From: a virus
Reading direction: 5' to 3' (one strand)
Length of the DNA: 44,278 bases
UHGV virus genome: UHGV-0261880
The stretch's first letter is position 1, and the number at the start of each line of letters is the position of its first letter. Positions 2,394 to 44,113 of the stretch are shown one piece after another. A program made the position numbers and the translations under genes. Below the pieces are notes generated by a model that was given only the letters and a program-made list of their open reading frames with translations, made no database searches and was not told the DNA's origin.

Positions 2394-2759
2394 TTATCGC
2401 CAAAATTCAATCTCCGTGTACGTGTCTCTGAGGTCCGCCAGCCTGTCAAGCCGTACCTGACGTGACGCAAGCTCGCAATGGCTGACCATCCCGTCGAAGT
2501 AGACTCCTGCGTGCCACACGATACGACCGCCACGGCGATACCCCATAAGCACCGCGCAGAAGTTTTCAGGCTTATCAATTTTCGTAAGCCCCTTCGTGTC
2601 CCGGCGGCCTTCGTCAAACGCTTCGTTAATCGCCGTTGGGCTTGTAACGTCGAACGCCGGTGTTTCTAACCCGGCATCCGCCCGCACAATTCGCACATGA
2701 TGCCAGCAATTGCGCTTGCGAAAGTCGTAAGGTATGCCCGTGTAGTCGTTAATGTTCAT
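2394..2759 (-). CDS. Tail assembly protein, NlpC/P60-type peptidase (lambda K-like)
   Basis: 121 aa; Cys in NCWHH and downstream His in WHAGVY resemble the NlpC/P60 Cys-His pair; position between minor tail proteins and J-like gene. Confidence 0.55.
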   Translation of the reverse strand: MNINDYTGIPYDFRKRNCWHHVRIVRADAGLETPAFDVTSPTAINEAFDEGRRDTKGLTKIDKPENFCAVLMGYRRGGRIVWHAGVYFDGMVSHCELASRQVRLDRLADLRDTYTEIEFWR

Positions 2760-3286
2760 GTGGTCAACAGGCCGCGTAATAACGGTATCTCTTTAGGTGT
2801 CATCAGTATACCAGTGCTTCGTTGGTGCAGCATAGGTGTACCAACATCTGCGGAGAACTCGCCTTTCTCCTGGTTGATAGCCTGCAACTCGTACACGACC
2901 GGGCCGTCAGCCGGATAAGACAGGTCGGTGCTGACGTAACGGCGGAAGACGAACTTAGGCAACTCAGTATTGCTCATCGGGATTTTATCCATCTCATCAT
3001 CCAGTTGATTGAGGATATCCGGTAAAGTAAACGTCGTAGTCTGGTCCATATCACTGTTGTTAGCCGCTCCCGACGCCTCCATCGGGGTTGGCTCGAATGT
3101 TATTGCTTCGCCCGTCTCCAGTGTTGCTGTAAGTTCCTGCAGCCCGCGAACAAGATAGTACGTCTTTGACAGCAACGGGTGGCTGATTTGCAACGTGATG
3201 TAGTCCATCTCGCCGTCGGGGTTTGAGGCCAGTTTACGGCGATAGGCGGCTTCTACTGATTCCTGGCTCATTGCATCGGGTCCCAA
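2756..3286 (-). CDS. Minor tail protein (L-like position)
   Basis: 176 aa ORF overlapping its neighbours by a few nt in the tail module downstream of the tape measure; call by synteny only. Confidence 0.45.
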   Translation of the reverse strand: MGPDAMSQESVEAAYRRKLASNPDGEMDYITLQISHPLLSKTYYLVRGLQELTATLETGEAITFEPTPMEASGAANNSDMDQTTTFTLPDILNQLDDEMDKIPMSNTELPKFVFRRYVSTDLSYPADGPVVYELQAINQEKGEFSADVGTPMLHQRSTGILMTPKEIPLLRGLLTT

Positions 3287-9614: not shown

Positions 9615-10109
9615 ATGATTATGGATTGGAATGAATTTTTCATATACGATTTAATTTCAGGAAGGATATTTAACAGAGTAACCCGGTCCGGGAGGGCTAA
9701 GGCTGGAGAGGAAGCAGGTACTGTCCAGCGAGACGGATATAGAAGGATATTTTTCCGTGGTAAATGGCATGCGGCGCACCGTATAGCTTGGGACTTAAAC
9801 AATCCTAACGATAAGCTAACCTCGTCAGATCAAATAGACCATCTAGACCATGACCGAATAAACAATAGACCGCTTAACTTAGCTAAAAAGTCCAATGCGG
9901 AAAACCATAAAAATATGTCAAAACAGCGTAATAATAAATCAGGAGTAACCGGAGTTTACTGGAATGCGAAAGAAAGGTTGTGGTACGCACAGATATTCAA
10001 CAATAACGTAAAAACACATATCGGGTGCTTTAAGACGCTACTAGATGCAGTTGCCGCGAGGAGAGTTGCTGAAAGAGATTTGGGGTTCCACGAGAACCAC
10101 GGTAAATAG
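9615..10109 (+). CDS. HNH homing endonuclease with C-terminal AP2-type DNA-binding domain
   Basis: 164 aa; HNH core HAAHRIAW...DHLDHDRINNR; C-terminal SGVTGVYWNAKERLWYAQI...GCFKTLLDAVAARRVAE is AP2-like; AT-rich relative to neighbours. Confidence 0.8.
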   Translation: MIMDWNEFFIYDLISGRIFNRVTRSGRAKAGEEAGTVQRDGYRRIFFRGKWHAAHRIAWDLNNPNDKLTSSDQIDHLDHDRINNRPLNLAKKSNAENHKNMSKQRNNKSGVTGVYWNAKERLWYAQIFNNNVKTHIGCFKTLLDAVAARRVAERDLGFHENHGK

Positions 10110-16551: not shown

Positions 16552-16802
16552 GTTTCCCCTTTCTCGATAAGTAAAGCCCCGCCTTAAAGCGGGGCGCTAG
16601 TCCTTATCATTTAAACATAAAAACAGCGTAATCTCAGTAAACCCGTTACTTTTTACACAAGCAATAGAGTATGGCCCTTCCGAACGCGTCAGCGTAACTA
16701 CACTCAGGACTTACGTCCCGCTCCGTTACCTGCCCGCGCCGCGGTCGCTTGTTCATACTTCACAAGCTCAGGTGGAGCTTAGCACATTTTCAGTGAAAAG
16801 TC

Positions 16803-16818
16803 AACTATTCGAATAGTT
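16803..16818. promoter_or_regulatory. Perfect 16-bp palindrome AACTATTCGAATAGTT
   Basis: Contains the same AATAG/CTATT half-sites as the promoter-associated element but in everted arrangement; lies ~55 nt upstream of the 16871 promoter. Confidence 0.4.
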
Positions 16819-16870
16819 TATTCCAACATTTACAATTCGATGGAATAACTGTAATACATAATCAAATAGT

Positions 16871-16899
16871 TTGCACACACCGATATAATAGGGTACTAT
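16871..16899 (+). promoter_or_regulatory. Sigma70-like promoter TTGCAC-N17-TACTAT with embedded palindrome
   Basis: TTGCACacaccgatataatagggTACTATtca, 30 of 32 nt identical to the 6959 element; ~30 nt upstream of the 16932 GTG start. Confidence 0.5.
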
Positions 16900-16931
16900 T
16901 CATTGCATCGAAACGAGAGGAGGGGTATAAA

Positions 16932-17246
16932 GTGAAAGATGAATTTAAAGGTACGAAAGGACCGTGGGAGTTCAAGAAAGAAAAAGGAGAGCAGGAATGG
17001 TTCGTGTTCCAGAAAGGCTCATTAAAGAAAATGTACGGCTGTACTATACGGACGCCAGTAGCCGAAGAAATTAATGATAAACATGACGCCGAACTTATTT
17101 CCTCGGCTCCGGAGTTACTTGAAGCTCTTCGCCAGCTTCGCGATTATGTTGAGGATGTTTGCGCGGTATCTTCTGATGATTGCCATGAAGACCATCCATT
17201 AAATCTAGCCAACAGAGCAATCAAGAAAGCATTAGGAAAGAAATAA
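16932..17246 (+). CDS. Hypothetical protein, opposite-strand insertion in head module
   Basis: 104 aa, GTG start with GAGGAGGGG RBS; own promoter and terminator; antisense to flanking head genes; ~42% GC. Confidence 0.6.
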   Translation: MKDEFKGTKGPWEFKKEKGEQEWFVFQKGSLKKMYGCTIRTPVAEEINDKHDAELISSAPELLEALRQLRDYVEDVCAVSSDDCHEDHPLNLANRAIKKALGKK

Positions 17247-24270: not shown

Positions 24271-24438
24271 TTACCAGGCGGTACGAATCATGTTGGCAAT
24301 ATAACGGGGCGTTTCATCTTTATTCCCGTTAGCGATAACCTCAAACCATTTAGCCATCATCAAATCTACGTCCTGTTCGTTGTTGCCCCATTTTATTAAT
24401 AATGCTTTAACTTTCTGCTCTGTAGTTTGCTTAGCCAT
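24271..24438 (-). CDS. Hypothetical small protein (55 aa), below cutoff; first gene after promoter
   Basis: ATG preceded by GGAG; translates [55 protein letters not shown]. Confidence 0.35.
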
Positions 24439-28829: not shown

Positions 28830-29023
28830 CCTCCCTCAGAGTCGTCAGCACGAGCATCATGATTCGATGCCGTTCGGAGCGCACGTAAAACTTTTAACAA
28901 GAGCTCACATGTCCCGGAAGAAATAGTCGGGCCGTCTAGCAAAACAACCTCGTATCTGTTTACCTGGAAATGCACCTTCTCTAGTCTATGATGTTTCAGT
29001 TCTTCAAATAATTCTTCCATCAC
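28820..29023 (-). CDS. Hypothetical protein
   Basis: 67 aa coupled ORF. Confidence 0.4.
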   Translation of the reverse strand: MMEELFEELKHHRLEKVHFQVNRYEVVLLDGPTISSGTCELLLKVLRALRTASNHDARADDSEGGCR

Positions 29024-29217
29024 TTCACCCCTTTGAATTTAAAATTGTTGCCGATGAGTTCTAAATTATCGCGTAAGGCGAACCCAGTTTTCTTTCTTAC
29101 CAGGCCCCATACGTCAACCAGATTATCCTGGTCATACTCGTTCTCGTCCTGCAACACTAATACATATTGCCCTCCACGTTTAGTTTTAGCCAATTGACCC
29201 TTCTTAAACATAACCAT
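29020..29217 (-). CDS. Hypothetical protein, first gene of leftward early operon
   Basis: 65 aa; ~30 nt downstream of the 29274 promoter. Confidence 0.4.
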   Translation of the reverse strand: MVMFKKGQLAKTKRGGQYVLVLQDENEYDQDNLVDVWGLVRKKTGFALRDNLELIGNNFKFKGVK

Positions 29218-29245
29218 CGCTCCTCGGTTTCGTTTTGATAAGTGA

Positions 29246-29274
29246 ATAGTATCCTATTATATTGGGGTGTGCAA
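29246..29274 (-). promoter_or_regulatory. Sigma70-like promoter TTGCAC-N17-TACTAT with embedded palindrome (minus strand), leftward early promoter
   Basis: Minus-strand reading TTGCACaccccaatataataggaTACTATtca, 31 of 32 nt identical to the 6959 plus-strand copy. Confidence 0.5.
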
Positions 29275-29708
29275 GAGAATAGTTACGTTGCCGTTGTGAT
29301 TCTTCAGGTAGGGTTGTGCCTTTATTCTTATTACTTGGTAACTAAAGGGCAGGCCCTAAGCCTGCCCAATAATCGTTACATTTTTACGGTTGCGAATCTA
29401 CGGCACTTTAAGAAAATCAGATACTTAAGATATATTCCGCCGATGGGAATAGAGCTTGCCCAGGGCAACCGGAGATACTTAGGAAGGAAAGTTACGATAA
29501 TTCGAATGTTCAGTAAACTGCCGCCTAACACTTCGCGTTGGGCGCTCGTTTTCGGCGGGTTTTACAAGGTGAACAGGAATCAAAGTAACTAAGATATAGA
29601 AGCACCTTAAACGAAGATTTTCTTAATGTCAATAGGTGCGATTATGTTTGATTTCCCATTATTCGCAATGTATACTTGGTTTCGTTAACTGATAATGGGG
29701 GTTTGAGA

Positions 29709-32435: not shown

Positions 32436-32463
32436 GTAAAAAGAAAGGGGCATTAAGCCCCTT
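32436..32463 (-). terminator. Terminator hairpin AAGGGGC-ATTAA-GCCCCTT with U-tract on minus strand
   Basis: Overlaps the stop of the XRE gene; plus-strand A-run 32436-32444 gives U-tract for minus transcripts. Confidence 0.5.
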
Positions 32464-32668
32464 CACCTAACGCCAGCCACTTGGCGTCTACTTCCAGCAC
32501 TTCCGCCAGTTTAAACAGCGTTGCCGGGCGGACGTCCTGAGTTACTCCGAGTGCAAGCTGATTAATTGCGCCCTGAGAAACTCCCGTCAGGACAGCCAGA
32601 CGGCGCTGGGAGATGCCGAGTTCTTTACGGCGCTGTTCTACACGGATGCCTAGTTCAGATGGTTGCAT
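32453..32668 (-). CDS. XRE-family (Cro/CI-type) HTH transcriptional regulator
   Basis: 71 aa; LGISQRRLAVLTGVSQGAINQLALG is a canonical HTH_3 pattern; TAAGGAG RBS. Confidence 0.7.
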   Translation of the reverse strand: MQPSELGIRVEQRRKELGISQRRLAVLTGVSQGAINQLALGVTQDVRPATLFKLAEVLEVDAKWLALGEGA

Positions 32669-32696
32669 GTCAATTACTCCTTAGTCAGTTGATATG

Positions 32697-32712
32697 TGAA
32701 TAGTACCATATT
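32697..32712 (-). promoter_or_regulatory. Operator-like palindrome copy overlapping the -10 (TACTAT) of the predicted XRE promoter
   Basis: TGAATAGTACCATATT on plus = ...TACTATTCA on minus, ~20 nt upstream of the XRE RBS; weak -35. Confidence 0.4.
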
Positions 32713-32732
32713 AATTATTTTAGAAAAGCCCA

Positions 32733-32761
32733 TTGACAAGTGAATAGTTGGCTATTATAGT
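32733..32761 (+). promoter_or_regulatory. Sigma70-like promoter TTGACA-N17-TATAGT with embedded palindrome AATAG-ttgg-CTATT
   Basis: Consensus -35, 17-bp spacer; 32 nt upstream of the 32793 start. Confidence 0.55.
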
Positions 32762-32792
32762 TAGCCCATACCAAACGAGAGGAGAGAAACAA

Positions 32793-33302
32793 ATGTTAGA
32801 GAAATTCTTAGTATTACTGGAACGTTTCGTAGTTGCACATGAACTGATTGCTGCAAATAGTGTGAAACGCCCGGTGCCGCCGGTTGAGCGTGCAGGTGAA
32901 ATGCTTGTAGACGTGTCGGTTACGGGAGAGGTACTTGAAGTCGACCCAGGCACTGGCGTAGGTAAAGAAATCCCGGTCGAAGGTGAAGACATCGTTGACT
33001 CTAAACCGGCGGAAGAAGAGAAGCCAAAACGCAAGCCGCGTAAAGCTAAAGTAGAGGAACCTACGCCAGAGCCGGAAGAAGAGAAAGAAGAGGTTGATTA
33101 TAAGTCTCTTCGTGACCAGATTCAGGCTATCGACGACGCAATTAACGAAGGTCCGAGCGATGCTGCGTGCGACGATTCCGATGAACTGCTGGAAGAGTTC
33201 ACCGGTAAGAAGATGAAGATTGCCGCGATTAAAGATGAAGACCTGGCTGAATATCTGGAACGCCTGACGGCAATCAAGAACAAGTATTTCGAAGAAGAAT
33301 AA
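32793..33302 (+). CDS. Highly acidic protein, first gene of rightward operon
   Basis: Track ORF trimmed to ATG with GAGAGGAGA RBS; central Glu/Pro/Lys-rich low-complexity region and acidic C-terminus. Confidence 0.5.
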   Translation: MLEKFLVLLERFVVAHELIAANSVKRPVPPVERAGEMLVDVSVTGEVLEVDPGTGVGKEIPVEGEDIVDSKPAEEEKPKRKPRKAKVEEPTPEPEEEKEEVDYKSLRDQIQAIDDAINEGPSDAACDDSDELLEEFTGKKMKIAAIKDEDLAEYLERLTAIKNKYFEEE

Positions 33303-33309
33303 CTATCCC

Positions 33310-33329
33310 GCGGCCTTCGGGCCGCTTTA
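33310..33329 (+). terminator. Hairpin GCGGCC-TTCG-GGCCGC + TTTAA (weak/partial terminator)
   Basis: GC stem with short U-tract just after the 33302 stop. Confidence 0.4.
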
Positions 33330-33345
33330 ACTGAGGGTCGGAATT

Positions 33346-33735
33346 ATGAAATACGAAGATATGAGTGATTTTGAAATTAATTGTGCAGTGGCAGTCGCAT
33401 TAGATTTGAATGAACATTTGTTCTTTCCATCTGGCGTCGATGACTTTGATAGTGATACTAATGATTCAGATATGGGGCCGGTGTGGCAAACACGAATGCC
33501 GTTTGTTAAAGGTTTTAGACCATCTAATGGTAATTTATTCAGCCCGTGCAACAACCTAGATATTACGTGGCAAATTATGACTCAAAATCATATATCGATT
33601 GAATGCGTTACGGTTAACCGACATACGTTTACGTATAAGGCGTATCACTCGGAATCGTTCACCGAAAGTACGCACGAAAACCCTCTCCGCGCAGCTATGA
33701 TTGTCTTCCTTAAAATGCAGGAGACAAAGAAATGA
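33346..33735 (+). CDS. Hypothetical protein, AT-rich gene
   Basis: 129 aa; visibly lower GC (~38-40%) than flanking genes. Confidence 0.5.
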   Translation: MKYEDMSDFEINCAVAVALDLNEHLFFPSGVDDFDSDTNDSDMGPVWQTRMPFVKGFRPSNGNLFSPCNNLDITWQIMTQNHISIECVTVNRHTFTYKAYHSESFTESTHENPLRAAMIVFLKMQETKK

Positions 33736-34004
33736 TTTATCAACTCTACCTTGCCGTGGACAGGCGGGATAACACAGAGGCTCTGTGGCTGTTGCGTGCG
33801 CCGTCGGGTGCGCACCAGATGGAAGAGATGGCGTACTTAGGCAAAGTACCGCGGCCTAAAGATATAGGCCGTCACGTGTCGCAGATTAAGCGCACGACAT
33901 TCGCCAAACCTGACTTTTATGTCTTCGAGTCGATGTATGGGTGGGCTATGCACTGCGACCATAAGACCAGACATTTAATTGACCAGTGGGAGAACAGGGT
34001 ATGA
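33732..34004 (+). CDS. Hypothetical protein
   Basis: 90 aa, coupled to neighbours. Confidence 0.45.
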   Translation: MIYQLYLAVDRRDNTEALWLLRAPSGAHQMEEMAYLGKVPRPKDIGRHVSQIKRTTFAKPDFYVFESMYGWAMHCDHKTRHLIDQWENRV

Positions 34005-35242
34005 TTCTAAAAGAACGCGGCGGTAATAACGATGTGCACTCCCTGTTGTCGCCGTCTGGGGCTAAAAAGTGGCTGGCGTGCAGTGCGTCACTGGCCTGTG
34101 AAAAAGATATCCCTAACACGTCCGGTAAAGCTGCTGTTACGGGGACCGCGTGCCACACTATAGCAGAGGTCCATCTAAACCAGTACATCAAAGGCACTGC
34201 ATTGCCGTTAGAGCGCGAAGTAGGTGCTTACGTGCTGGAAGAAGGCAAAGGTCAGATTAAGGCGCTAATCAGCCCGATGAAAGGCGCGGTACTGATTACG
34301 GCTGATATGATTGAGCAGGTTCGCAAGTACACCGACTACTGCAAAGCAATTATCGACGTCGCGACTTACGCCAAGCTGGAAATGCGCGTCAATCTTACTG
34401 AGGTATTGCATCCAGGCTATGAAGGCGTTGAGACGTTCGGGACTGCTGACCTTGTTGCCGTCCAGGAACTGGCTAACACCGACGAGCACATGCTAATCAT
34501 CGGCGACCTGAAAACAGGACGACATCGTGTCGAAGCGAAAGAAAACAAGCAGCTTATGCTTTACGCTCTCGGTGTCTATCGCCGACTCAAGAGACGTTAC
34601 AACATCACCGTGGTTCGCCTGGGCATCTTCCAGCCGTACGCCGGGGGCGCGTCGGAGTGGGACATCTCGGTTGAAGGTCTGGAACTGTTCGCTAAGTTCG
34701 CACAGAAACGCGCGCTGTTAGCTCTCGATGCGTATTTCCGTGGCAAGAAGAACCTGAAAGCGTCGGACTTCAGGCCGTCGGTCGATGGTTGTCAGTGGTG
34801 TCGGTTCTCAGAGCAGTGCGCCGCGCGTACAAAAACCGTTAATTCCGTACTGGCGGAAGAACTGGAAGACGACTTTGCGCTGGAACTGACGCCAGAGCAA
34901 CTCGTCGCTGAGTATGAGAAGTTGCCGTTGTTGCGCCAGCACATCGACAAGGTTGAGAAAGCGATGGCTGCTGCTTTGCATTCTGGTAAGAAAGTGCCGG
35001 GGTACAAGTTGGTTGAGGGCCGCCCTGGTAATCGTGCGTGGAAAGACGCAGAGAAAGTAGCAGAACTCTACGGCGACAAGCTGACTAAAGAAGTGCTTAT
35101 GGCGCCGACCGAGGCCGTTAAAGTTATACCGGAAGAAGAACTGAAAGGCTTCATTACCCGTAAGCCCGGTGCGCCATGCGTCGCAACGGCAGACGACAAA
35201 CGACCAGAGTGGAATCAGGTTAGTGAAGAAGATTTAGAATAA
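34001..35242 (+). CDS. PD-(D/E)XK exonuclease, Cas4-like (DUF2800-type) with Cys cluster
   Basis: Track ORF trimmed to ATG (MILKERGG...) overlapping upstream stop; GTADLV...IGDLKTG...QLMLYALG nuclease motifs; N-terminal Cys in LACSAS and C-terminal CQWCRFSEQC. Confidence 0.75.
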   Translation: MILKERGGNNDVHSLLSPSGAKKWLACSASLACEKDIPNTSGKAAVTGTACHTIAEVHLNQYIKGTALPLEREVGAYVLEEGKGQIKALISPMKGAVLITADMIEQVRKYTDYCKAIIDVATYAKLEMRVNLTEVLHPGYEGVETFGTADLVAVQELANTDEHMLIIGDLKTGRHRVEAKENKQLMLYALGVYRRLKRRYNITVVRLGIFQPYAGGASEWDISVEGLELFAKFAQKRALLALDAYFRGKKNLKASDFRPSVDGCQWCRFSEQCAARTKTVNSVLAEELEDDFALELTPEQLVAEYEKLPLLRQHIDKVEKAMAAALHSGKKVPGYKLVEGRPGNRAWKDAEKVAELYGDKLTKEVLMAPTEAVKVIPEEELKGFITRKPGAPCVATADDKRPEWNQVSEEDLE

Positions 35243-35246
35243 AGTC

Positions 35247-35275
35247 TTGACACCTGAATAGTTAGCTATTATAGT
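35247..35275 (+). promoter_or_regulatory. Sigma70-like promoter TTGACA-N17-TATAGT with embedded palindrome AATAG-ttag-CTATT
   Basis: Near-identical to the 32733 promoter; ~55 nt upstream of the 35331 start. Confidence 0.55.
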
Positions 35276-35330
35276 TCTAATCACTGGCCGGGCAGTTCCC
35301 GGAGTAAACTGAAAACTGAGGAATCGAGAT

Positions 35331-36013: not shown

Positions 36014-36292
36014 ATGGCAGCGGAACTTAAGAGATACAGACGCATCACATACTGCAAATTTTGTAAGGCAGAAGGTAAAAAAGTTAGAGCAATTTGGATG
36101 ACTAAATACCCTCCAGCTTACGGTGTACGAGACTGGTATAAACACTATGCATGCGAGGAGCATAAACATTTAATAGAAGACACAGACCCAGACCGGACTT
36201 GGGCAGAAATCATAGAACGCGGTAAAAACAAGAAACAAGATCGCGACGACCATCTCACAGAAGCAGACTATCAGACGTGGTACAGACTATGA
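36014..36292 (+). CDS. Small zinc-ribbon-like protein
   Basis: 92 aa; CKFCK...YACEEHKH; lower GC than the polymerase gene it overlaps. Confidence 0.45.
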   Translation: MAAELKRYRRITYCKFCKAEGKKVRAIWMTKYPPAYGVRDWYKHYACEEHKHLIEDTDPDRTWAEIIERGKNKKQDRDDHLTEADYQTWYRL

Positions 36293-41992: not shown

Positions 41993-44113
41993 TTACCCAA
42001 TAACAGTCCCATCAGTAAGGCTTGTTGGCGGGGAACCAAATTTACGCACTAACTGATTTGATGAGTTTTTAAACAAATAGAATTTGCTACCAAATTCCAT
42101 GCATGGAATACCTGTTCCTGTGGTTGTAGCCAATCCGAGATTTGTTGCAATGAATGCCTTTCCATCGAAATTAATAATATTATTTACGTTATTTACCCCG
42201 TGGTAGTTTGAAATCGAACTAACCCAGTCTACAGCTGTAGTTTTTGGATTAGTAATGTTCAATGCATTTGCAGCTGCCGTCAGCGTGTCTATGCGCAGAT
42301 TGTCGATAGTTACTTTTCCGTAATTATCGATTATCCATGAAGTAGCTGGATTGCGTATATCGATGTTACGTCCTACAAACTCGCTAATGTTCTTTATTCT
42401 CGGAGCGGTTTTAATTCCGGTCAAGGTGCAAGTATAGTTCTCGACTTTGACGACCCCAAAGGTATCTCCTCCGTTAGTCGTGTTTATACTGAGAGCATTC
42501 TGCACGTTTTCACTTGTTACATTTAAAATTTTAGCATCAATTGCGCCAGAGTTCTCAATATTAACGTCAGTGTTAGCACCGTTTATGTACACACCATCGA
42601 GTGTAGCTTTACGAGTAAGTGGAGAGTTGCTCGGATACATGCTAATGATAAACCCCATCGTATTATGACGAACTGATGGGTCATCTTCATCCTCTACCGT
42701 ATTCTGGTGATAGATTCTTGTACCTTGCCCTATGTACACGTCATAGCTTCCAGATAGACGCATACCCCACTTGCCTTTCTTACTCCCGATATTGTTGCAA
42801 TATGCACCGAGAACAACCCCAGACGATATCTGGAATACAGGGCTGCCGTCAGAATTGTCTTCAGAGGTCATCAATATTGGCTCTCTCCAGCGGGATACCT
42901 GATATGACCCGCCAATTACCTTGAAGTTAGCGGTACTGTGGAAGGCCATGCCGTTACGGTCAGTGTCATAAGTGCGACAACGCGTCACCTGCACATCAGT
43001 ACAGAACTTAAACATTATCCCAGGTTGACCGCCACGAGAGCCATAAGCATTAACAACCGAGCAGTCAGTTAATTTAATGCGAGTGGCCTGGTGGAACCAG
43101 AAACCATTAAATGTTGACGTATCTACTGTTGTGTCCCACGTCACATTAGACTTATTACCATCAATAACAAGTCCATTTACGGTGATGTCATAATGCTCAG
43201 GGATACCTGCGTCATAAGTATACGCCTTACGGTTGGTTATCCCGGTGGAAATGCTTGGGTAGTGACCGGGTTTTAATTTCAGCGTACATCCGTAAGCATT
43301 AATTGTTGTACCGGGCTTAACAATTAAAGGTGTCCCGTCCCAATAAATTGTTCGTGCGGGGAAAGCAATCGTCGAGGCTCCTGAATTTAGCGCGGCCTTA
43401 ATGGCTGCCGTATGATCCCCAGCAGTTTCCATTGCTGGAGTAATGAAGCTCTCTACGCTGACGTGTGCACCATACCCACGATGCCCATTGCCCTGTGAAT
43501 ACCAGTTACTATCTGGCGCGCTACCCGGTGCGATGCTAACTGGGAATGTGGACGCCCCCTTATATGCATACCAATTCCCATCAGCAGCCTGGGCCAGGTC
43601 GTTCGGGCCTGACACTGAACCACCGGCAGCAAAAGTAACACGTCTGGTAGTAGCAGTTTTGGCGTAGTCACTGTAGACGGTACCGCCAAAACTGCTACCG
43701 ACTATCTTATCGCCGTTGCTTTCTAAATCGTTTCTCAAATCAGGGTCCGTCTGAGGTTTCCAATCCGCATTACCCACAGGGTTAAAACCTGCTGGAACCG
43801 TAACAGGCAGAGCACCGGCGTACGAGTACCACGTCTTGCTTACAGGGTCATACACCACTTTGTCACGGTCATTAACTGTTAACGTACCGCCGGTAGAAAA
43901 GTCCCACGACACAGGAGAAAATCCAGCGTCACGCAACACGGCGGGGAGCGTTTTTTGGGTCTGGCCTGTAACAGGGTTGGTCGCGTAATCGATATTGGTA
44001 CCCCCAGCAACCCCGCCGGATTTGCCGGTGATAACCTCGGCCTCGAAAATCTGGTGCTTCTTGGCGGTTTGTAAATCCGCCAGGCTTAAAACGTCACCAC
44101 ATCCGCTTGACAT
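41993..44113 (-). CDS. Tailspike / tail fibre with right-handed beta-helix (pectate-lyase-like) central region
   Basis: 706 aa; central segment rich in short repeated Asn/Gly/Thr/Val turns (VIDGNKSNVTWDTTVDTS...VQVTRCRTYDTDRNGMAFHS...) typical of beta-helix depolymerases; AAAGAGGA RBS. Confidence 0.7.
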   Translation of the reverse strand: MSSGCGDVLSLADLQTAKKHQIFEAEVITGKSGGVAGGTNIDYATNPVTGQTQKTLPAVLRDAGFSPVSWDFSTGGTLTVNDRDKVVYDPVSKTWYSYAGALPVTVPAGFNPVGNADWKPQTDPDLRNDLESNGDKIVGSSFGGTVYSDYAKTATTRRVTFAAGGSVSGPNDLAQAADGNWYAYKGASTFPVSIAPGSAPDSNWYSQGNGHRGYGAHVSVESFITPAMETAGDHTAAIKAALNSGASTIAFPARTIYWDGTPLIVKPGTTINAYGCTLKLKPGHYPSISTGITNRKAYTYDAGIPEHYDITVNGLVIDGNKSNVTWDTTVDTSTFNGFWFHQATRIKLTDCSVVNAYGSRGGQPGIMFKFCTDVQVTRCRTYDTDRNGMAFHSTANFKVIGGSYQVSRWREPILMTSEDNSDGSPVFQISSGVVLGAYCNNIGSKKGKWGMRLSGSYDVYIGQGTRIYHQNTVEDEDDPSVRHNTMGFIISMYPSNSPLTRKATLDGVYINGANTDVNIENSGAIDAKILNVTSENVQNALSINTTNGGDTFGVVKVENYTCTLTGIKTAPRIKNISEFVGRNIDIRNPATSWIIDNYGKVTIDNLRIDTLTAAANALNITNPKTTAVDWVSSISNYHGVNNVNNIINFDGKAFIATNLGLATTTGTGIPCMEFGSKFYLFKNSSNQLVRKFGSPPTSLTDGTVIG

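Follow-up and report, generated by a model that had tools for sequence, protein, structure and literature searches.

Two small genes with apparently separate histories, variable NinX-family cargo and a conserved nuclease companion, precede the DUF2800 nuclease of a Kagunavirus-like phage

Two small open reading frames, of 129 aa (ORF129; positions 33346 to 33735, plus strand) and 90 aa (ORF90; 33732 to 34004, plus strand), lie directly upstream of a Cas4-like nuclease gene in the 44,278-nt phage sequence analyzed here (the window). A sequence-only reading, which located both frames correctly, took them for a single AT-rich insert, newly acquired by a replication cassette that is otherwise conserved, and proposed accessory, for example anti-defense, functions. 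Does this interval hold a single insert, or two genes that arrived and persisted independently? The window is a Kagunavirus-like (Guernseyvirinae) phage genome with a GC content of 50.8%. Its replication cassette matched 447 phage records at 80 to 95% nucleotide identity, nearly all of them Guernseyvirinae named for Salmonella (Jerseyvirus type) or Escherichia (Kagunavirus type), and its structural half best matched Escherichia phage M01 (~90% identical). The phage collection searched held no near-identical relative; with the nearest whole-genome relative at ~90% (M01), there is therefore no near-isogenic comparison from which to date gain or loss of the 129-aa gene.

The local gene order is an AAA_25-type primase-helicase, a divergent helix-turn-helix (HTH) regulator, an acidic phrog_3127 gene, ORF129, ORF90, the DUF2800 nuclease, a Gp2.5/Enc34-type single-stranded DNA-binding protein (SSB), a 92-aa gene, and DNA polymerase A. 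The Cro/CI-type regulator gene (32453 to 32668, minus strand; Pfam HTH_3, E = 2 × 10−12) is divergent from the ORF129/ORF90 operon, and its product is 94 to 100% identical across Kagunavirus loci. The acidic gene upstream of ORF129 (32793 to 33302, plus strand; phrog_3127, E = 9 × 10−67; pI 4.45) encodes 169 aa if read from ATG 32793 or 184 aa from TTG 32748, with 67 to 98% amino acid identity in relatives. The nuclease gene (34001 to 35242, plus strand) matched Pfam DUF2800 (PF10926; E = 5 × 10−68), PDDEXK_1 (E = 9 × 10−9), and the phrog_69 exonuclease family. We count its 413 aa from ATG 34001; the list of open reading frames has a start at GTG 33986, and relatives annotate 1,242-nt genes whose ATG likewise overlaps the ORF90 stop codon. 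The SSB gene downstream of the nuclease matched Pfam PF10991 (E = 8 × 10−16), and a 754-aa polymerase open reading frame lies further downstream; the polymerase gene of this module in relatives is DNA_pol_A. Rfam and tRNA scans of the whole window returned no matches.

Exact calculation of base composition separated the two frames. ORF129 has a GC content of 39.7% (third-position GC [GC3], 40.0%), the lowest among 76 genes (mean, 50.0%; standard deviation, 4.0; −2.6 standard deviations), a comparison set consisting of crude gene calls on the window with a gene-mean GC3 of 0.53. It falls at the 0.6th percentile of all 390-nt windows. Within the gene, GC content is 37.6% over the 5′ 245 nt (34.4% over the first 125 nt) and 43.4% over the 3′ 145 nt. 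ORF90 has a GC content of 52.0% and a GC3 of 63.7% (58th percentile of 273-nt windows), and the 659-nt interval with both frames, at 44.9%, reaches only the 8th percentile. The flanks are at 47.6% (upstream gene), 53.1% (nuclease), and 54.7% (primase-helicase), and neighboring genes have GC3 values of 0.59 to 0.64 versus 0.40 for ORF129. The composition shift is thus beyond chance but confined to ORF129, mainly to positions ~33346 to 33590. Lower GC than the flanks, as had been claimed for both frames, was borne out for ORF129 only; ORF90 lies above the window mean, and its composition is uniform with its surroundings. Several other small genes in the window also have GC contents of 40 to 45%.

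ORF129 belongs to the NinX family. It matched Pfam PF10765 (Phage_P22_NinX/DUF2591) across profile positions 1 to 114 of 114 (41.0 bits; cutoff, 22.6; E = 2.7 × 10−10) and phrog_444 (E = 2 × 10−30), and we refer to the gene as ninX. The view that neither frame has recognizable motifs therefore does not hold for ORF129 and is half right for ORF90, which lacks a Pfam match but belongs to phrog_4965 (E = 4 × 10−44). The family residues are all present in ORF129 (Y3, M6, S7, D8, F9, E10, I11, and N12, plus the C-terminal NPLRAAMIVFL helix), and columns D8, N12, R115, A116, A117, M118, I119, and V120 are invariant in an alignment of 67 NinX sequences. An AlphaFold2 model (pLDDT, 88.3, with the exception of an acidic loop at about residues 31 to 40) has the fold of a small α/β/α sandwich, and the C-terminal half is predicted to adopt an α-β-β-β-α, dsRBD-like layout. 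The “Phage ABA sandwich” structures PDB 4PUP (Burkholderia cenocepacia) and PDB 1R7L (Bacillus cereus prophage) share only 12 to 14% sequence identity with ORF129, and the NinX profile detected neither by sequence. Both are structural-genomics targets, 4PUP being listed as uncharacterized and 1R7L as “phage protein.” PDB sequence searches, run with each protein and each family profile, were uninformative; the sole match, AC54 (E = 0.41), was judged to be due to chance. Neither ORF129 nor ORF90 matched a PADLOC or NCBIfam model, and comparison with characterized anti-defense families gave no similarity in sequence or fold. Literature searches on NinX, DUF2591, and PF10765 yielded annotations only, with no functional study and no defined biochemical activity.

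Named members of this family in Jerseyviruses carry the annotation “NinX-like protein” (Salmonella phage Jersey gp48 and S104 orf49). The copies in the S100-series phages and in dunkel are 91.5% identical to ORF129 at the amino acid level and occupy the same place, upstream of the same 90-aa gene. P22-type NinX is ~45% identical and sits between ninE and ninF in the nin region, whereas ORF129 does not; ORF129 also bears an allele-specific acidic insert of ~35 to 45 aa. Elsewhere, NinX occurs in arrays of small accessory genes, namely the P22-like nin region and an island beside Imm_superinfect and DUF551. We conclude that the interval is a case of ordinary phage mosaicism rather than a new system, involving a known family that is already annotated in GenBank Jerseyviruses.

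Comparison of relatives revealed that the site occupied by ninX (slot 1) is variable. Among 40 scorable close IMG/VR loci of the Kagunavirus/Jerseyvirus type, slot 1 was empty in 25, held a NinX allele in 8, and held other small genes in 7; an empty slot leaves a gap of 46 to 59 nt. In Escherichia phage UTEC10, ninX is absent exactly from its ATG to the orf90 ATG, with the upstream hairpin and Shine-Dalgarno site kept. NinX alleles fall into at least five mosaic types (A to E) of 95 to 129 aa, plus a 72-aa remnant in fPoEco01. Types A to E share the start MKYE..D.EIN and the end PLRAAMIVFLKM with swapped middles, such that the first ~12 and last ~20 residues are common to all types. Of ORF129, the AT-rich 5′ two-thirds occurs only in the long type A allele, and the last ~150 nt is shared with other alleles. 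Full-length copies of this long allele were found in 19 of the ~447 cassette-bearing GenBank records, none of them named for Escherichia: the carriers are Salmonella Jerseyviruses or Proteus- or Pseudomonas-named relatives of Jerseyvirus type, whereas the backbone around ORF129 is that of an Escherichia-type Kagunavirus. The uncultivated Kagunavirus-like contigs L020 and L093 carry the long allele as well. The best nucleotide match to ORF129 in the phage collection was 93.3% identical, and its nearest copies are in Salmonella Jerseyviruses. ORF129 is an accessory gene: at one fixed site, close relatives differ both in whether they have it and in which allele they carry.

Pairwise Nei-Gojobori estimates gave dN/dS values of 0.12 to 0.21 for ninX, implying a real, functional gene. 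Its dS to the copy in Jerseyvirus S104 was 0.23, compared to 0.46 to 0.94 for the flanking genes of the same pair, suggesting cassette exchange after the backbones diverged; its dS to the L020 copy was 0.51 (flanks, 0.45 to 0.59). A best match of 93.3% and a dS of 0.23 in turn suggest that the acquisition was not recent. Taken together, these comparisons indicate that ORF129 is probably a laterally exchanged accessory gene, younger than its flanks in the S104 comparison but not recent. Horizontal acquisition as earlier proposed thus finds support for ORF129 as far as exchange is concerned, and its recency is doubtful.

A different history would make NinX ancestral at this site in the Guernseyvirinae and repeatedly deleted, with the window retaining an old gene. 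In both genera the alleles do occupy precisely one and the same site, several of them are conserved over their 3′ 150 nt to roughly the degree seen in the flanking genes, the NinX-less arrangement has the form of a precise ATG-to-ATG loss with ATGA microhomology, and decaying copies exist, as in fPoEco01. However, when the window is compared with S104, the long allele has a dS two to four times below that of the flanks, the allele is otherwise found in GenBank only in genomes not named for Escherichia, and more distant relatives that keep ORF90 have no NinX at slot 1. The low GC3 of ninX relative to its neighbors also argues for a different history. We regard ancestry at the site as rather unlikely and favor lateral exchange.

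The low GC of ORF129 could also reflect constraint on the protein or its expression (an acidic insert rich in N, D, S, F, and I, and an AT-rich 5′ end for translation initiation) rather than foreign origin. The most AT-rich part, the first 125 nt, is at the 5′ end and encodes the acidic low-confidence loop, as this explanation would predict, and GC-poor small genes are found elsewhere in the window. It accounts poorly for the synonymous third positions, which are AT-rich too (0.40 versus a gene mean of 0.53), and for the composition of the other genes inserted at this locus: the occupants of either slot in relatives are all low in GC (38 to 49%). Given that these cargo genes are unrelated, low GC appears to be a property of the mobile cargo pool and not of the ORF129 protein alone, and we consider constraint an improbable explanation. 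Low GC does mark cargo at this locus; the sequence-only reading extended the heuristic one gene too far.

The second slot is at the junction between orf90 and the nuclease. It is empty in the window, and relatives hold DUF551, ProQ-C-like, HNH_3 plus AP2, and other small genes there. The stretch from the phrog_3127 gene to the nuclease in Guernseyvirinae is thus a two-slot hot spot that swaps small, low-GC genes frame to frame. It resembles the morons and accessory hot spots of tailed phages in presence/absence at fixed junctions, in GC content below that of the backbone, and in interchangeable, unrelated cargo, of which NinX, DUF551, the ProQ-C-like gene, and the HNH plus AP2 homing endonuclease are examples. 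Classic morons carry their own promoter and terminator, whereas ninX in the window is spliced frame to frame with ATGA overlaps, and a promoter scan found no promoter-like site at 33303 to 33345, the closest one on the plus strand being that at 32733 to 32761; ninX is accordingly not a moron in the classic sense. The two-slot locus offers a handy natural site at which to seek host-interaction genes or to engineer payloads in therapeutic-candidate phages.

ORF90 did not behave as cargo. By tblastn, 202 phage records encode it, and amino acid identity reaches ≥90% in 166. It was present in every Kagunavirus-type locus sampled, with amino acid identity above 90% in nearly all (two exceptions at 86 to 88%), and the presence/absence variation among close relatives that characterizes cargo was not seen. 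With a family profile, 71 IMG/VR loci were informative, and 64 of these have ORF90 immediately before the nuclease, among them groups in which the nuclease shares only 43 to 57% identity with that of the window. Five homologues with 30 to 36% identity, from metagenomic phage contigs, lie upstream of a DUF2800 nuclease with 0 or 1 small gene in between, followed by an Enc34-type SSB. Values of dN/dS were 0.02 to 0.06 in 12 of 13 pairs (0.11 versus L045), and dS values of 0.30 to 0.71 were the same as those of the nuclease and the upstream gene, suggesting that ORF90 codiverged with the backbone. The only loci that lack ORF90 are 7 from a single Jerseyvirus subgroup that keeps the nuclease; there, the spacer between the upstream gene and the nuclease is a clean 45 to 46 nt in 4 of 7 loci, with gaps of 207 to 592 nt in the other 3. 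Since that subgroup keeps its nuclease, the nuclease does not strictly need ORF90. By these comparisons, ORF90 is not an insert but a gene under strong purifying selection and a fixed part of the nuclease/SSB/polymerase module.

Could both frames nevertheless form one recently acquired AT-rich insert with anti-defense functions? No gene in the window has a lower GC content than ORF129, which is also patchily distributed; the region is a hot spot of small cargo genes; and an arms race could produce allelic mosaicism of the kind seen in NinX. In addition, phage Bas14 encodes a DUF2800 nuclease that is reported to set off a type IX retron (bioRxiv 10.64898/2026.07.14.737667), and with these nucleases sensed by a defense system, modulators encoded nearby are conceivable and worth testing. 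As a single insert, however, the pair fails at ORF90, with its ordinary GC content, its retention in distant relatives, its low dN/dS, and a dS equal to that of the flanks. The two genes also vary independently, UTEC10 having ORF90 without NinX, and the best NinX match, at 93% and a dS of 0.23, speaks against a recent event. We consider the single-insert, anti-defense reading highly improbable. Accessory status fits ORF129, which is patchy at slot 1, and not ORF90, whose conservation in relatives is nearly strict and is broken only by the one Jerseyvirus subgroup. The outcome is therefore mostly corrective: the composition cue rightly flagged NinX and wrongly grouped with it a conserved neighbor.

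What, then, is ORF90? The family comprises 16 clusters at 50% identity among 1.84 billion representative proteins, and its members are stand-alone proteins of 46 to 94 aa, with the exception of one spurious repeat protein. Residues L5, D10, R12, D13, W19, A34, K53, and W86 are invariant family-wide. The AlphaFold2 model is confident (pLDDT, 94.7), of the α+β class, and the protein is mildly basic (pI 8.8). Pfam returned no match for ORF90, including in a per-member scan at E values up to 10, and no catalytic signature was found. An RNase H-like or RuvC-like assignment was rejected: hhalign against an approximate Escherichia coli RuvC sequence gave a probability of 0.3%, and E66 is not conserved across the wider family. 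A fold search of BFVD returned only uncharacterized phage proteins. Among these was Q333H4 (Rtp, 96 aa), which from its length we take to be rtp10; this lead was dropped, as rtp10 is located in an early small-gene array and not near a nuclease.

The position of ORF90 invites comparison with small anti-RecBCD genes that lie beside phage recombination genes, as in lambda gam-bet-exo, T7 5.9-6, and P22 abc2. The main rival to a partnership with the nuclease is that ORF90 inhibits a host nuclease such as RecBCD, in the manner of lambda Gam, T7 gp5.9, or P22 Abc2. Like those genes, ORF90 is small and directly adjoins an exonuclease/single-stranded DNA-binding pair, an analogy only, as it has no sequence or fold similarity to them. 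An inhibitor would be consistent with the absence of ORF90 from a Jerseyvirus subgroup in which the nuclease is retained and with the lack of a recognizable catalytic signature. Gam and gp5.9, however, are acidic, helical DNA mimics, whereas ORF90 is mildly basic and α+β, and Pfam reveals no similarity to such families. An internal partner would account no less well for the very strong purifying selection on ORF90 and for its presumed tight translational coupling to the nuclease. We judge host-nuclease inhibition to be unlikely. Partnership is the reading that we prefer, tentatively and at somewhat less than even odds: ORF90 may work with the DUF2800 nuclease, either as a stoichiometric partner or as a regulator, during end processing and recombination-dependent replication. 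Gene order shared among related phages can come from common ancestry alone.

A phage module of duf2800, gp2.5, and polA has been described (Steczkiewicz et al. 2012, as cited in PMC8093625). The window has the same order, with the DUF2800 PD-(D/E)XK nuclease followed by the Gp2.5/Enc34-type SSB and DNA polymerase A. The lineage of the window differs in adding the 90-aa phrog_4965 gene directly upstream of the nuclease, a gene absent from the module description consulted, and in having two cargo slots that flank orf90. A bolder proposal would make ORF90 a fourth component of the module in enterobacterial siphoviruses, a dedicated partner or regulator of the nuclease, for example by controlling its activity or by hiding it from host sensors of the type IX retron kind, with the flanking slots, including mosaic NinX, serving as an arms-race locus that tunes the interaction; this we put forward as speculation with a low chance of being right. 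Neither ORF90 nor NinX was linked to the type IX retron by any evidence here. Deeply conserved and modeled with confidence, ORF90 accompanies a nuclease family reported as a retron trigger and is a reasonable experimental target, and the ORF90-nuclease pairing is the one lead that merits an experiment.

Our preferred account of the interval, which we hold to be probable, is that it consists of two unrelated small genes in one early/middle transcription unit: a dispensable NinX cargo gene in a hypervariable slot and ORF90 as a conserved member of the nuclease module. NinX alleles would keep their terminal helices and swap the middle, the 5′ and middle parts of the window copy being allele specific, acidic, and AT-rich. 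Recombination in the conserved flanks would carry cargo from Jerseyviruses to Kagunaviruses and vice versa. NinX is most likely noncatalytic, a module that binds a host factor or nucleic acid, and it would tune infection in particular hosts without being needed for replication. Its exposed middle may be shuffled between phages; anti-defense would be one conceivable version of such a role.

The proposed unit would run from a promoter at 32733 to 32761 through the acidic phrog_3127 gene, a hairpin, ninX, and orf90 to the DUF2800 nuclease. In this arrangement, orf90 would be translated by coupling through ATGA overlaps immediately before the nuclease: the ninX stop and orf90 start codons overlap at 33732 to 33735, and the orf90 stop and nuclease start codons at 34001 to 34004. 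Expression of ninX, orf90, and the nuclease from one promoter with translational coupling is what we infer from this layout; the passages searched in a transcriptome paper on Kagunavirus K1B4 give no per-gene expression data for ninX or orf90. The hairpin (33310 to 33325, plus strand; GCGGCC-TTCG-GGCCGC followed by TTTAAC) is in the 43-nt spacer before ninX and is retained in relatives with and without NinX. It is GC-rich, and RNA folding of its 55-nt context gave a z-score of only −1.0, no better than that of shuffled sequences. A terminator scan did not call it as a canonical terminator because its T-tract is weak.

The promoter, operator, and hairpin roles are predicted from consensus scans. 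The promoter (plus strand) is sigma-70-like, with TTGACA and TATAGT hexamers 17 nt apart (11 of 12 consensus matches), and probably marks the start of the unit. A palindrome, AATAG-N4-CTATT, sits between the hexamers and is a plausible operator for the adjacent HTH protein. A 44-nt element of this region is repeated at 35233 to 35276, just after the nuclease stop codon. The repeat includes a second promoter/operator copy (35247 to 35275, plus strand), which would begin the next unit of the Gp2.5/Enc34-type SSB, orf92, and DNA polymerase A. Between the two copies, the hairpin at 33310 to 33325 is the only candidate signal. The 21-nt promoter core occurs exactly twice in the window, versus 0 occurrences expected.

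The 90-aa gene orf90 (phrog_4965) is absent from part of the related set. It was wholly missing from seven Jerseyvirus-type IMG/VR loci (L042 to L044, L046, and L048 to L050), in four of which a spacer of 45 to 46 nt separates the upstream gene from the DUF2800 nuclease gene. Six of the seven encode a longer variant of the nuclease (about 473 aa; about 74% identical to that of the window), and the remaining locus, L042, encodes a nuclease of normal length with 93% identity to the window nuclease. The Salmonella Jerseyvirus S104 keeps the 90-aa gene, although its nuclease is of a similar long form. Truncated ORF90 fragments of 52 to 87 aa were also found among the database matches (P0008, P0009, P0012, and P0020 to P0025). 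A DUF2800 nuclease of phage Bas14 has been reported to trigger type IX retron immunity and to be dispensable in that phage (2026 preprint, doi 10.64898/2026.07.14.737667); the window nuclease (34001 to 35242) belongs to the same family.

The ninX gene, which precedes orf90, is decaying in several relatives: Escherichia phage fPoEco01 (L002, 1208 to 1552), fFiEco02, fFiEco03, Ivi, and SHAK7693. The annotation covers only a 72-aa C-terminal open reading frame (ORF); the 5′ part is out of frame yet can still be aligned to the type C allele. In the Kagunavirus-like locus L093 (Logan contig ERR15093828, 3001 to 3647), NinX is called at 153 aa, and the next gene encodes 61 aa instead of the usual 90. 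This arrangement looks like a frameshift or fusion over the ATGA junction of ninX and orf90, or else an assembly error.

The junction between orf90 and the nuclease gene constitutes a second slot, which is vacant in the window. Examples lie at 2507 to 3001 in the related loci L026 and L051 and at about 2801 to 3001 in L035. In some relatives this slot holds a homing-endonuclease gene (HNH_3 plus AP2; 165 aa), of which phage Jersey has a 67-aa remnant. The slot also accommodates genes for Phage_ProQ_C_like (115 aa) and DUF551 (85 aa) proteins.

Two copies of a putative promoter element of 44 nt (TTGACA-17-TATAGT; 32719 to 32762 and 35233 to 35276) lie on either side of the unit that extends from the phrog_3127 gene through the nuclease gene. 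Exactly two instances of the 21-nt core are present in the window (0 expected); a third, weaker variant of the element lies at 32689 to 32713. Between the −35 and −10 hexamers is an AATAG-N4-CTATT palindrome, and the core is probably the operator of the divergent gene predicted to encode an HTH regulator at 32453 to 32668. The phrog_3127 protein (32793 to 33302), labeled "13.88 kDa late protein" in some GenBank records, has a pI of 4.45 and carries a net charge of about −21, which makes it extremely acidic; its low-complexity center reads PEPEEEKEE. Its gene diverges more quickly than those adjoining it (dN/dS of 0.08 to 0.26).

Low GC content was also found elsewhere in the window. Between the SSB and DNA polymerase genes, a 92-aa gene (phrog_9585; 36014 to 36292; no Pfam match) has 43.0% GC (GC3, 39.8%) and overlaps the start of the polymerase ORF. 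This could be one more small gene that is either associated with the module or carried as cargo. Further patches or genes of 36 to 43% GC lie at about 42034 to 42700, about 16776 to 17050, 9615 to 10109, 24271 to 24438, and 29020 to 29592. The minimum of both the 659-nt and 390-nt scans, near 42034 to 42038, falls within a minus-strand gene (706 aa; 41993 to 44113) with an overall GC content of 46.6%.
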